Below, piece by piece: positions 44,175 to 47,164 of a DNA stretch of 64,000 bases. Position numbers and translations under genes: made by a program. The stretch comes from Candidatus Moraniibacteriota bacterium (GTDB taxonomy: Bacteria; Patescibacteriota; Minisyncoccia; Moranbacterales; GCA-2747515). The stretch's first letter is position 1; each line of letters opens with the position of its first letter. The stretch lies in assembly GCA_027031495.1 (NCBI GenBank), contig JALVQA010000006.1:16952-80951 (forward strand), in the 5' to 3' direction. The notes beneath the pieces were generated by a model. It saw only the letters and a list, made by a program, of their open reading frames with translations. It had not been told where the DNA came from and ran no database searches.

Positions 44175-44981
44175 ATGATAAAGAAGTTAAGAAAAAGGAA
44201 ACATACAGAAAAGGAGAATGTGAAAGAAGGAAACAAAGAGTATGTAAAAGAAAATGATGCGTGTTCTGAGAAGGAATGCGCGCGCGTAGATACGTGCTGT
44301 TGTACATCAAAACGTGTTGTTGCTTATCGTGATGAGCGGTTTCTCTTTGGTTTTGTAAGTGGTCTTGCGATTGCAGCGATTGCCGGTTTCATTATTCTTT
44401 CAAATACTGTTGCAAATACTGGCACAAAGGAACCGCGCCTGGCGGTAGAAATAACAAAAGAAGATTGGACATACGGCAATCCTGATGCAAAGGTTGCAAT
44501 TGTGGAGTTTTCTGATATAGAGTGTCCATACTGCAAAAGTTTCTATAAGACCCTAAAAGAAATTGTTGATAATTCTGACGGCAAGATTAAATGGGTTTAT
44601 AGACATGCACCACTTGACAGTTTACATCCAAATGCGCGTCTTAAAGCACATGTTATTGAATGTATCGGCGCACAGGGTGGTAATGATACGTTCTGGACAG
44701 CACTTGATGACATCATTTTAAACAAGGTTGAACTTGCAACAATGGACGACTTTGATGCGTTTATAAAGAAACTTGGTGCTGACAACGAGAAGTTCAAGAC
44801 GTGTATGGAGAGTGGTCTCTATGCTGTAAAGATTCAAGAACACCTTGAAGAATCGCAAAAACTCGGTATGAAGGGCACACCTTTCTCCGTGATTGTTGCA
44901 GGAAAGAAGACAGTTCCTATCCCGGGCGCACTGAAGAAAGAGCAGGTCATGTCACTAATTAATCCGTTCCTCAAGAAATAG
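44175..44981 (+). CDS. DsbA/thioredoxin-like thiol:disulfide oxidoreductase with a cytoplasmic Cys-rich N-terminus and one TM
   Basis: FSDIECPYCKSF is a CPYC active site in a DsbA-like fold. Upstream of the TM is CSEKECARVDTCCCTSKR. Confidence 0.65.
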   Translation: MIKKLRKRKHTEKENVKEGNKEYVKENDACSEKECARVDTCCCTSKRVVAYRDERFLFGFVSGLAIAAIAGFIILSNTVANTGTKEPRLAVEITKEDWTYGNPDAKVAIVEFSDIECPYCKSFYKTLKEIVDNSDGKIKWVYRHAPLDSLHPNARLKAHVIECIGAQGGNDTFWTALDDIILNKVELATMDDFDAFIKKLGADNEKFKTCMESGLYAVKIQEHLEESQKLGMKGTPFSVIVAGKKTVPIPGALKKEQVMSLINPFLKK

Positions 44982-44984
44982 GGT

Positions 44985-45548
44985 GTGATGATACGTGTTA
45001 TTGTAGAAACGATACGTACTACTCGTTACGGTCTTGTCAGCTTTGGTGTTGCACTTGTCTTTGCTCTTGTGGTTATTACTATGCCGCAGTGGGCAACGCT
45101 CTCTACAATTTTTGGCATTGACAGTTATAGTTTTAGTGAGAAAGTTGCGGTGGGCACTTCGCTTATTGTGGGCTCGCTAACAGCGCAGCACAGTACGCTT
45201 GATATTTTTGCACTTGCGGTTCTTGCTCTTCTTACTGCTGTTGCGCTTGCTCTTACTTTGCGTGACATGCATGAGCGTATAGCGGTAGGACGTATGACGG
45301 GTCTTGGACTGATTGGCGCATTTATTGGTGCACTCGGCATTGGGTGCAGTGCGTGTGGTGCGGCATTTCTTGCGAGTATTGTTGGTGTCTCTGGTGCTGC
45401 GTGGATTGTGAGCACGTTACCGTTTCATGGCGTGGAACTTACTCTTGGTGGCATTGTTCTTCTTCTCATTGCAATTTACATGCTTGCCAAGAAGCTTCGC
45501 GCGCCACGTACATGTAATACGCGTAAAAGAAAACCAGATAAAATGTAA
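44985..45548 (+). CDS. Small polytopic membrane protein with an intramembrane CxxC (GIGCSACG), candidate redox partner of the upstream DsbA-like protein
   Basis: 187 aa with about 5 TM segments. The only Cys pair, CSAC, lies inside a hydrophobic helix. The gene starts 4 nt after the dsbA-like stop and ends 4 nt before rmlA. It does not look like DsbB or VKOR, which carry additional loop Cys pairs. Confidence 0.45.
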   Translation: MMIRVIVETIRTTRYGLVSFGVALVFALVVITMPQWATLSTIFGIDSYSFSEKVAVGTSLIVGSLTAQHSTLDIFALAVLALLTAVALALTLRDMHERIAVGRMTGLGLIGAFIGALGIGCSACGAAFLASIVGVSGAAWIVSTLPFHGVELTLGGIVLLLIAIYMLAKKLRAPRTCNTRKRKPDKM

Positions 45549-45552
45549 AAAT

Positions 45553-46278
45553 ATGAAAGGTATTATTCTCTCTGGTGGTAGCGGCACACGTCTGCGCCCC
45601 TTAACAAAAATGACATCAAAGCAGCTGTTGCCTGTATACAATCGTCCCATGATTTACTATCCACTCAACACATTGTTGCGTGCCGGTATTACTGATATTC
45701 TTATTATCATTGCACCAGAACATGCTGGTAATTATCTCAATCTTCTCGGATCGGGAAAAGAATTTGGCGCTCGCTTTACGTACGAGATTCAGGATGAACC
45801 GCGTGGGTTGGCGGAAGCGTTTATCATCGGAGAGTCGTTTTTGGATGAAGAGAATGTTGCAATGATTTTGGGCGATAATATCTTTGAGGATGATTTTACG
45901 GAAGATATTAAGAGCTTTCGTAGTGGTGGTCGTATCTTTGCAAAGCAAGTGCCTGATCCGGAGCGCTTTGGTGTTGTGACGTTTGACAAAGAGAATAGAG
46001 TAACTTCTATTGAGGAAAAACCGCAGAATCCACAGAGTAATTATGCAATTCCCGGGCTCTACATTTTTGATGGTCGCGCTGCACAGATTGCGCGATCAGT
46101 GCAGCCAAGTGCACGCGGAGAGTTAGAGATCACAGAAATGCATAATTATTACCTGCAGAGAGGAGAATTGGATGTACGAACATTTGACGGCGCGTGGGTT
46201 GATGCTGGTACATTTGACTCTTTGCTCAATGCGCAATTCTTGGCAAAAGAAAAATTGCAAGATAAGATGATAATTTAG
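45553..46278 (+). CDS. rmlA: Glucose-1-phosphate thymidylyltransferase-like sugar nucleotidyltransferase, short form
   Basis: MKGIILSGGSGTRLRPLT...KQLLPVY is the G1P nucleotidyltransferase signature. The ATG at 45553 avoids overlap with the upstream gene. Substrate specificity is not certain. Confidence 0.75.
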   Translation: MKGIILSGGSGTRLRPLTKMTSKQLLPVYNRPMIYYPLNTLLRAGITDILIIIAPEHAGNYLNLLGSGKEFGARFTYEIQDEPRGLAEAFIIGESFLDEENVAMILGDNIFEDDFTEDIKSFRSGGRIFAKQVPDPERFGVVTFDKENRVTSIEEKPQNPQSNYAIPGLYIFDGRAAQIARSVQPSARGELEITEMHNYYLQRGELDVRTFDGAWVDAGTFDSLLNAQFLAKEKLQDKMII

Positions 46279-46285
46279 AATATTT

Positions 46286-47164
46286 ATGGCACGGAAAATC
46301 AGAAAAGCTATTATGCCGGTTGCCGGTTTTGGGACACGCTTTTTGCCGGCAACAAAAAGTCAGCCAAAGGAAATGTTGCCGGTTGTTGATCGTCCAGTTA
46401 TTCAGTATCTCGTGGAGGAAGCTGTTGCGAGTGGTATTGAAGAAATTGTCTTTGTAACGGGACGCGGCAAACGTGCAATTGAAGACCATTTTGATGTATC
46501 GTACGAACTCGAGGAAACGCTTGTTGAAAAAAATAAACAAGACCTCCTTAAAGAAGTGCAGAAAATTGCGCACCTTGCAAAATTTTCATATGTACGTCAG
46601 TCACTGCCACTTGGTGATGGGCATGCCATTTTGCAAGCGGCGCATCTTGTTGGTGACGAGCCGGTACTTGTTCTTTTTGGTGACTGTATTTACGACAGTA
46701 AAGTGCCGGCAGCAAAACAGATTATTGAAACGTACCATCGGCATAAAGGAAGTATCATCGGTACAGCAACTGTGCCACTGGAAGAAGTCTCGCAATTTGG
46801 CGTTGTAGCAGGGGAGCGTATCGATAAGCGTACTGTCAAGATGACACATATGGTGGAGAAACCGGCACCGGAAGATGCGCCGTCACAATCTGTTGCTGTG
46901 GGGAAGTACATTGTTACACCCGAGATTTTTGCAATTTTAAGCACAATGAAAAGCGGGGCGTCCGGCGAGATTCGTCTTGCTGATGCGTTTGAAATCGCTC
47001 TCAAAAAAGGACATGAAATTTATGCATATGACTTTGATGGTATATGGCTTGATACGGGTGATAAATTTAACTTTTTGCGCGCAACAATTCATCTCGGTCT
47101 AAAACATCCGAAAATTAAGAAAAAGTTGACGGCGTACATAAAGGAGATTGCAAAAAATCTTTAG
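46286..47164 (+). CDS. galU: UTP-glucose-1-phosphate uridylyltransferase
   Basis: KAIMPVAGFGTRFLPATKSQPKEMLPVVDRPVIQY is the GalU signature. 292 aa. Confidence 0.85.
   Translation: MARKIRKAIMPVAGFGTRFLPATKSQPKEMLPVVDRPVIQYLVEEAVASGIEEIVFVTGRGKRAIEDHFDVSYELEETLVEKNKQDLLKEVQKIAHLAKFSYVRQSLPLGDGHAILQAAHLVGDEPVLVLFGDCIYDSKVPAAKQIIETYHRHKGSIIGTATVPLEEVSQFGVVAGERIDKRTVKMTHMVEKPAPEDAPSQSVAVGKYIVTPEIFAILSTMKSGASGEIRLADAFEIALKKGHEIYAYDFDGIWLDTGDKFNFLRATIHLGLKHPKIKKKLTAYIKEIAKNL

Follow-up and report, generated by a model that had tools for sequence, protein, structure and literature searches.

Introduction

The known membrane partners of thioredoxin-fold proteins in the bacterial envelope are DsbB, VKOR and, recently, MauE, which serve oxidation, and DsbD, CcdA and ScsB, which serve reduction. 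Most bacteria of the candidate phyla radiation (CPR) lack quinone synthesis and respiratory chains. According to a 2026 preprint, 20% of surveyed bacterial species have neither DsbB nor VKOR nor MauE (10.64898/2026.03.05.709764). On the reductive side, ScsB and ScsC form a pair that is induced by copper (PMC3322552, PMC10907172; further Scs biology in PMC5524982). Here we describe a pair of genes from a Candidatus Moraniibacteriota bacterium, located in a 64,000-nucleotide stretch of contig JALVQA010000006.1 that we refer to as the window. Gene 1 encodes a DsbA-like protein and gene 2 a small membrane protein with three conserved cysteines, which we call the tri-cysteine protein:

44175 to 44981, plus strand: gene 1, DsbA-like protein of 268 amino acids (open reading frame translation and Pfam)
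44985 to 45548, plus strand: gene 2, tri-cysteine membrane protein, 187 amino acids from the GTG at 44985 or 186 from the ATG at 44988

Public gene callers choose the ATG at 44988. The kind of system, a thioredoxin-fold protein with a cysteine-bearing membrane partner, is known. What is new, judged by sequence, is the family of its membrane component and the way the cysteines are arranged in it.

A family of membrane proteins with three conserved cysteines

We searched 1.84 billion representative sequences (clusters at 50% identity) exhaustively with HMMER. Representatives of the gene 2 family numbered 1583 with E<=1e-3, of which 872 reached E<=1e-10, and their length was nearly always 170-200 amino acids; word-indexed searches recovered just 4 relatives with the single protein and 24 with a profile. 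Family proteins carry just the name 'hypothetical protein' in their sources. An earlier note on this DNA had raised the possibility of a known non-redox family, yet no Pfam or NCBIfam model matched consistently among 150 members. The TauE/SafE model (PF01925) was rejected: it matched the window protein alone among the 150, at 18.5 bits against a cut-off of 32.6. A fold search of the PDB with the family model gave no match, a PDB sequence search with the family profile gave only a designed transmembrane (TM) protein (E 0.03), and a plasmid tblastn search gave none. The family or module is described nowhere in Pfam (2025 copy), NCBIfam (2026), the PDB or the searchable literature. These results indicate a large and previously unclassified family that looks undescribed.

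To define conserved positions, we used an alignment of 155 sequences that share 20-35% identity with the window protein. G120, C121, C124 and P146 are invariant, and G118 and G125 are at least 98% conserved. G149 and E151 occur in 154 sequences, L145 in 142 and G111 in at least 90%, with K53, N35, N68 and N87 also strongly conserved across the family. The earlier note had described a 187-residue protein whose only cysteine pair is that of GIGCSACG. The motif is present, but the public start gives 186 residues and there is a third cysteine, C177 ('PRTC' in the window protein), which is kept in 151 of the 155 homologues, the other four being gapped there. Conservation of the cysteines, on which the earlier proposal leaned, therefore holds for the C121/C124 pair in every homologue and for C177 in nearly all. 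The family signature reads G-[IV]-G-C-[AS]-[AS]-C-G-S ... L-P-x-x-G-x-E-F ... K-K-I-x-x-P-x-x-C, and its parts, placed by the alignment, lie in the window at:

45345 to 45356, plus strand: intramembrane C121-S-A-C124 within G-[IV]-G-C-x-x-C-G-S (GIGCSACG in the window protein, residues 118-125)
45417 to 45437, plus strand: outer loop L145-P146-x-x-G149-x-E151
45513 to 45515, plus strand: C177 (KKIxxPxxC) in the C-terminal tail

Because C121 and C124 are invariant among sequences this divergent, the cysteine pattern is, on the strength of the alignment, far beyond chance.

We then examined how frequently family genes adjoin DsbA-like genes. One genome per GTDB species was scanned with the motif G[IV]GCA[AS]CGS (25-sequence subset), which gave 240 confirmed genomes, and 80 loci were fetched. 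This set is biased toward members of the G[IV]GCA[AS]CGS type and away from the window's own clade. Open reading frames in the loci were called in-house and then searched with hmmsearch, and neighbours were identified by Pfam on cluster representatives; in all, 84 loci with 86 family genes were analysed. Of the 86 family genes, 66 directly follow a DsbA-like gene on the same strand and 2 more directly precede one; the median gap is 3 nucleotides. For another 11, the fetched locus shows no DsbA-like gene; several of these family genes are at contig ends. The co-occurrence across CPR genomes that the earlier note had looked to is thus found. The fetched loci carry Patescibacteria-type labels or evidently wrong third-party annotation (TPA) labels such as 'Gammaproteobacteria', and the assignment to Patescibacteria rests on these labels, not on the 1583 representatives. 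Read from gene order, the two genes are a conserved Patescibacteria module.

The DsbA-like partner

Gene 1 encodes a protein that matches Thioredoxin_4 (PF13462; 79.8 bits, 3.4e-22, cut-off 23.2) and DSBA (PF01323; 56.4 bits, 4.6e-15, cut-off 25.6). Profile score, CxxC active site and cis-Pro loop all place it in the DsbA-like thioredoxin families. Its best NCBIfam equivalogs named for Dsb enzymes are DsbG (6.8e-6) and DsbC (1.8e-4), both below cut-off and both ahead of the DsbA models; across all of NCBIfam the protein scores highest with the thioredoxin-like lipoprotein family Rcas_1661 (1.8e-16), again short of the cut-off. The closest solved relatives in a PDB search are 4n30, 3gyk, MdbA (4pwp) and ScsC (4xvw, 6nen and 6mhh).

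The protein consists of a basic, Cys-rich N-terminal tail, one TM anchor (about residues 56-75) and the thioredoxin domain, in line with the earlier description of a CPYC thioredoxin-fold protein with one TM segment and an N-terminal Cys cluster. By the positive-inside rule the tail would be cytoplasmic and the thioredoxin domain extracytoplasmic. Nearly all partners have a single N-terminal hydrophobic anchor after a basic tail. Two elements of the window protein were placed by reading its sequence:

44523 to 44534, plus strand: CPYC active site, residues 117-120
44262 to 44303, plus strand: N-terminal Cys cluster CSEKECARVDTCCC, residues 30-43

The active-site cysteines are invariant in 65 of 65 partners, and the Thr-cisPro loop (GTP, residues 234-236 in the window protein) is kept in 64 of 65. 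Among 68 partners, the motif is CPFC in 58 and CPYC in 4. An extra Cys pair, C163/C210, occurs in ~90% of partners and is probably a structural disulfide, which may resemble the extra structural disulfide of Mycobacterium tuberculosis DsbA. Alignment of the upstream partners indicates a coherent subfamily, and gene 1 is predicted to encode an anchored extracytoplasmic thiol-disulfide oxidoreductase of the DsbA/DsbG/ScsC type. With MdbA, M. tuberculosis DsbA (Rv2969c; PMC3792642), BdbD and ScsC it shares the Thioredoxin_4 and DSBA matches, the CPxC motif and the Thr-cisPro loop. It differs from that group in its N-terminal TM anchor, in the Cys-rich tail of the window clade and in having a membrane partner that is neither VKOR nor DsbB.

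The Cys-rich N-terminus is real but specific to the window clade (P0177-P0179), where the consensus GCCG..C..HTPKRV[VI]AYRDERF stands just before the TM anchor. It is absent from most partners and so is not the family trait that the earlier note might suggest. This tail, predicted to share its face of the membrane with C177 of the tri-cysteine protein, might serve in metal binding or redox chemistry. The partner in locus L062 has an unrelated Cys-rich tail, CEEC...C..C.

Relation to described families

None of the known membrane partners matches gene 2, as the earlier note had stated for DsbB, VKOR and CcdA. For DsbB (PF02600) there was no match at E<=0.1 in the 150 members, and hhalign against four genuine CPR DsbB proteins gave a probability of 0.7%. 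DsbB carries two Cys pairs in outer loops, whereas gene 2 proteins have just three conserved cysteines, none of them in predicted outer segments, and the DsbB four-helix fold was not found. VKOR (PF07884) likewise matched none of the 150 members; there is no loop Cys pair and no VKOR fold match. The VKOR CxxC lies at the outer end of the last core helix, while that of the family is predicted to start 12 residues from the cytoplasmic end of its helix. MauE (PF07291) and DoxX (PF07681) had no match in the 150 members, and the family motif is C-x-x-C in 155 of 155 sequences; MauE has CXC as its active site (10.64898/2026.03.05.709764). The CcdA/DsbD/ScsB models (PF02683, PF13386) also matched none of the 150.

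The mercury transporters MerC, MerT and MerE (PF03203, PF02411 and PF05052) had no Pfam match in the 150 members. With Tn21 MerC (a query 100% identical to the annotated merC), hhalign aligned only 11 columns, the GCAAC motif, at a probability of 5%, and we rejected homology to MerC.

Predicted membrane topology

An AlphaFold2 model built from 150 sequences reached a predicted local distance difference test (pLDDT) score of 87.8, compared with 63 for a 5-sequence run. It places helices at residues 13-44, 50-68, 71-105, 109-144 and 150-172, with confidence lowest around the CxxC (pLDDT 65-78 for residues 111-140). The earlier note had counted five TM helices. Across 150 homologues, Lys and Arg (K/R) average 2.7 per sequence in the N-terminus, 3.5 in residues 96-108 and 3.0 in the C-terminal tail. 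Segment 37-69 is moderately hydrophobic and amphipathic, with an acidic stretch at 37-52, and residues 145-151 are acidic and K/R-poor. A five-TM model violates the positive-inside rule at two K/R-rich segments, whereas a four-TM model with both termini inside violates it nowhere. On hydrophobicity and K/R distribution, four TM helices (15-36, 73-95, 109-144 and 152-168) plus an amphipathic outer helix appear more likely than five.

Natural fusions agree with the four-TM model. In P0095 (381 amino acids), a class-I S-adenosylmethionine methyltransferase (Methyltransf_25 and related models) follows the C-terminal tail directly, with no extra TM helix; this fusion could be a gene-call artefact. 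In the fusions in loci L033, L015 and L076, an extra TM helix is added first and a Cys-rich domain follows. Because the tail is K/R-rich and a cytoplasmic-type methyltransferase is fused after it in P0095, C177 is predicted to be cytoplasmic and membrane-adjacent.

Counted from the K/R-rich 96-108 loop, 12 residues of a Gly-rich helix of 36 (109-144) precede the CxxC, so that C121-C124 are helix residues 13-16. We predict that the CxxC sits mid-membrane or in the cytoplasmic half or inner leaflet. The LPxxGxE loop is predicted to be extracytoplasmic because it is acidic and K/R-poor, and together with K53, N35 and N68 it would form a Cys-free site on the outer face.

Genes around the pair

At least one copper or metal gene is present in 58 of the 84 loci. 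The recurrent neighbours are:

P1B-ATPase with HMBD: 42 loci
DUF3105, usually at +1: 24 loci
BlaR1-like M56 peptidase, usually at -2: 21 loci
BlaI-like repressor, usually at -3: 19 loci
HMA-DsbD_2: 17 loci
multicopper oxidase: 16 loci
CsoR-like: 11 loci
YtkA-like: 10 loci

None of the recurrent neighbour clusters resembles MerA, MerP or MerR, though no model search was made for these and several smaller clusters are unlabelled.

Directly before the pair, ~20 loci encode a repressor like BlaI and an M56 peptidase like BlaR1 (for example L029:4217-5209 and its preceding gene; also L013, L018, L022-L026 and others). The M56 representative that we inspected has a Cys-rich end (C..NSDNC...C), and the repressor representative has no CopY-type C-terminal Cys motif. 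This arrangement suggests, from gene content, a proteolytic envelope-stress switch over the module.

Many TPA metagenome-assembled genomes deposited as 'uncultured Gammaproteobacteria', 'Pseudomonadales' or 'Cytophagia' carry loci that match Patescibacteria-labelled genomes at 82-95% identity (L006, L009, L012, L013, L015, L016, L019, L024, L026, L029 and others). Their deposited taxonomy labels look wrong. For L026, this judgement follows from 95% identity and a shared gene order with the Patescibacteria-labelled L025; L013 is 82% identical to L018.

Other cysteine-rich neighbours

A genuine BdbC-type DsbB (PF02600, 50-56 bits against a cut-off of 22) is encoded in four loci (L058:6512-6994, L068:6455-6970, L065:4914-5399 and L055:10277-10840). 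In three of these the order is DsbA1(CPFC)-TMCxxC-DsbB-DsbA2(CEAC), with DsbB and DsbA2 overlapping; in the fourth, DsbB and a second DsbA-like gene lie elsewhere in the locus. The presence of DsbB in presumably quinone-poor CPR bacteria is notable in itself.

Two further unclassified families occur both alone and fused to the tri-cysteine protein, and neither has a Pfam match. Family X is TM-anchored, ~200 amino acids long and predicted to have an extracytoplasmic domain, with the motifs GSCCS.M..HRY, PCCCKCWRWY and DGCGG. Family Y is anchored, ~320 amino acids long and predicted to be extracytoplasmic, with the motifs RPCC.NS.AFPDCNHGMA and, at the C-terminus, GGGCG[VIA]. Their genes are:

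L033:6004-7149 and L015:5165-6316: family X fused after the tri-cysteine protein, with an extra TM helix
L080:2171-2764, L074:2676-3323, L041:6507-7169 and L019:6548-7246: family X standing alone at +1
L076:3329-4813: family Y fused to a tri-cysteine paralogue
L070:310-1293, L035:9129-10160 (minus strand), L033:11531-12508 and L049:2683-3636: family Y standing alone

Standalone family Y genes adjoin CcdA-superfamily genes in L070 and L035, and one gene separates the two in L033. By our comparison of these arrangements, the tri-cysteine protein in the L076 fusion takes the place that CcdA holds elsewhere.

Two small membrane families were also observed, neither with a Pfam family. One, of ~150 amino acids, has invariant GFG.Q, M.ACC.H ('ACCAHH') and YQ motifs and occurs in the same copper islands:

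L016:5055-5519
L031:6717-7190
L034:2777-3218
L053:9056-9505
L059:1582-2112
L060:6730-7217
L076:7704-8135

Against the tri-cysteine family, hhalign gave it a probability of 56% (E 1e-4, 93 columns) and aligned its CC inside the CxxC. The 'ACCAHH' family may be a distant relative, or the match may be a compositional artefact. The other, 'unk138', is a membrane protein of ~138 amino acids with a C...GPCPM motif, found in 8 loci (L019:4636-5052 and 7 more), mostly 1-2 genes upstream of the DsbA-like gene.

The genes in the window

In the window, two genes for nucleotide-sugar enzymes follow the pair:

45553 to 46278, plus strand: RmlA-like sugar-1-phosphate nucleotidylyltransferase, short form, 241 amino acids (Pfam NTP_transferase, 1e-61)
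46286 to 47164, plus strand: GalU, UTP-glucose-1-phosphate uridylyltransferase (TIGR01099, 332.7 bits against a cut-off of 326.8)

The earlier note had named these rmlA and galU. GalU passes its equivalog cut-off, but the first protein falls below that of TIGR01207 (298.9 bits against 360.65) and also misses that of TIGR01208; we therefore label it only RmlA-like, with its sugar-nucleotide specificity a candidate assignment. Public gene callers start it at ATG 45553. The spacing is 3-6 nucleotides from gene 1 to gene 2, then 4 to the RmlA-like gene and 7 to galU, close to the 4-8 previously read as a four-gene operon. This spacing is the case for the operon. A promoter and terminator scan of the window came near shuffle expectation (12 promoter-like sites against 12.8, 11 terminator-like sites against 5.8) and found no plus-strand terminator-like site between the four genes; it neither supports nor breaks the operon.

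The order alaS-lysS-pair-rmlA-galU is shared by the window and its close relatives L002 and L003. Since the rmlA/galU linkage is confined to these three, it is lineage-specific and probably incidental, a matter of compact-genome packing among housekeeping genes. The earlier link to nucleotide-sugar synthesis accordingly gives way to copper and metal homeostasis genes as the usual neighbours of the family. We found no copper, DsbB or CcdA homologue within the 64-kb window itself.

We also noted that no tRNA gene was found in the window, that GC skew is positive across all 64 kb (0.04-0.20 per 4-kb bin), that large open reading frames beyond ~34.6 kb are mostly on the plus strand and that the alanyl-tRNA synthetase is short (632 amino acids). 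Together these fit a compact CPR-type genome and a single replichore.

Discussion

We consider a thiol relay the most likely function of the module. The earlier note had suggested an undescribed disulfide-relay or electron-transfer pair; the family does look undescribed, and the relay itself is a proposal. Our preferred version, held tentatively and at somewhat less than even chance, is that gene 2 encodes a conduit of reducing equivalents like CcdA, DsbD or ScsB that serves a DsbG/ScsC-like partner. The tri-cysteine protein would take reducing equivalents from the cytoplasm via C177, presumably from thioredoxin, and pass them to the intramembrane C121/C124 pair. From that pair they would reach the partner's CP[FY]C site and so keep the partner reduced, and the reduced partner would reduce or isomerise wrongly oxidised envelope cysteines. 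Gene 2 would then play the role that CcdA, DsbD and ScsB play for DsbC, DsbG and ScsC, one especially needed under copper stress. A reductive role of this kind would explain why the module is usually located in copper islands that appear to be under BlaI/BlaR1 control.

We favour the reductive conduit because of the predicted cytoplasmic cysteine, the copper islands, the DsbG/ScsC-like CP[FY]C partner and the general lack of quinones in CPR bacteria. As in ScsB-ScsC, or in DsbD/CcdA with DsbC, DsbG or ResA, the membrane protein gene adjoins a gene for a DsbA/DsbG-like thioredoxin-fold protein of the CPYC type, the context is copper stress and the membrane-buried cysteines have (here, predicted) cytoplasmic access. 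In a similar way to the periplasmic domains of DsbD and ScsB, a Cys-rich outer domain is joined to one family paralogue. The family differs from these systems in having no sequence, profile or fold similarity to them, in its 4 predicted TM helices as against 6-8 and in its occurrence in Patescibacteria rather than Proteobacteria.

Several observations weigh against a reductive conduit. Alignments of DsbD_2 and CcdA-like proteins from the same loci gave hhalign E values of only 0.14 and 0.63. CcdA and DsbD carry one cysteine on each of two inverted-repeat helices among at least 6 TM helices, whereas the tri-cysteine protein has both membrane cysteines on one helix, a third in the tail and four predicted TM helices. 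The partner is DsbA-like, with no recognisable dimerisation domain, and its conserved structural disulfide means that oxidative folding does happen outside these cells. CcdA-superfamily genes occur in 7 of the same islands and TlpA-like genes in 5, so a reductant conduit can already be present, and a thioredoxin gene is linked to the module in just 1 of 84 loci. The depth of the CxxC, moreover, is derived from sequence statistics and from an AlphaFold2 model that is least confident there.

Could gene 2 instead encode an oxidase of the DsbB, VKOR or MauE type, which re-oxidises its partner and hands the electrons to the membrane or another acceptor? Such an enzyme would add another disulfide-generating class, not homologous to the known ones, and supply the missing step in bacteria with DsbA and no known oxidase. 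The layout would suit an oxidase: a small multi-TM protein with a CxxC near or within a TM helix, encoded beside a DsbA-like gene, mirrors dsbA-vkor, bdbD-bdbC and mauD-mauE. In the partner, the CPxC is of the oxidising type and the structural disulfide pair is conserved, and a PDB search places the protein among MdbA-like oxidases; the 64-kb window has neither DsbB nor CcdA; and K53 and E151 bring to mind two conserved residues of MauE, a Lys and a Glu close to its predicted quinone site (10.64898/2026.03.05.709764). However, known oxidases all keep their catalytic cysteines facing outward, whereas here the predicted extracytoplasmic loops have no cysteine, a second outward pair is missing and the third conserved cysteine is predicted to be cytoplasmic. 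The motif is CxxC and not the CXC of MauE, and there is no fold or profile similarity to any of the three families. Most CPR bacteria also lack quinones. A genuine DsbB and a second DsbA-like protein adjoin the module in three loci and lie elsewhere in a fourth, and this coexisting oxidase pair speaks against reading the family as just 'the CPR DsbB'. Those four loci, together with the predicted cytoplasmic Cys and mid-membrane CxxC, weaken the notion that a DsbB is missing, and we regard an oxidase as unlikely.

Doubtful as well, in our judgement, is a thiolate metal transporter or hand-off system like MerC, MerT or MerF, in which Cu(I) or another soft metal would pass from the CP[FY]C protein to the Cys pair and on to the cytoplasmic Cys, or in reverse. 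A set of three thiolates would fit Cu(I) or Hg(II) bound in trigonal geometry, and copper and metal genes lie near the pair in most loci. The layout resembles that of MerC, which has GCAAC in its first TM helix and a cytoplasmic C-terminal Cys pair: gene 2 proteins are also small, combine a Cys pair in a Gly-rich TM helix with a predicted cytoplasmic Cys, lie in metal islands and carry GIGCAACGS, which resembles the MGCAACFP of MerC. The weak similarity to the 'ACCAHH' family and the predicted cytoplasmic Cys cluster on the partner tail in the window clade point the same way, and ScsC proteins bind Cu(I) tightly (PMC8900818). Yet the family Cys pair is in the third predicted TM helix and not the first, there is one predicted cytoplasmic Cys instead of a pair, and the partner has a thioredoxin fold, not the HMA fold of MerP. 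The short MerC alignment, the absence of Mer matches in Pfam and the lack of a recurrent Mer-like gene cluster, within the labelled neighbours, also count against transport. Neither Met nor His ligands are conserved, and with its Thr-cisPro loop the partner retains the whole signature by which protein thiol oxidoreductases bind their substrates. Around the window copy, the 64 kb contain no metal genes. For a resistance island to import copper would be a paradox, though one with a precedent in CopCD. We judge it very unlikely that the two genes are functionally uncoupled, with gene 2 a structural or unrelated envelope protein that travels with a DsbA-like gene and whose cysteines are structural or lipid-modified. 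Short gaps alone say little in CPR genomes, where genes are tightly packed and mostly run in one direction, and for some family genes the fetched locus lacks a DsbA-like gene. Against this, adjacency is kept, at a median of 3 nucleotides, across lineages whose family proteins are only 20-35% identical to the window protein and among wholly different surrounding genes. A conserved set of CxxC, P, G, E and C is what catalytic or ligand sites typically show, and there are fusions to Cys-rich extracytoplasmic domains.

Returning to the thiol relay, we put at about even the broader proposal that this protein of ~185 amino acids founds a non-homologous class of transmembrane thiol relay serving DsbA/ScsC-like proteins across Patescibacteria. 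If Cu(I) were moved through the thiolates instead, the family would be a new one in metal transport. If the tri-cysteine protein is a true thiol relay, it would be a new molecular solution for moving redox equivalents across a membrane, and, with its four TM helices, single intramembrane CxxC and single cytoplasmic Cys, the smallest such relay known. It would also be a very small and tractable model protein. For the organisms themselves, it would show how minimal, mostly quinone-less cells control the redox state of their envelope cysteines under copper stress, and it would explain how a major uncultivated radiation looks after its envelope thiols and defends itself against copper.

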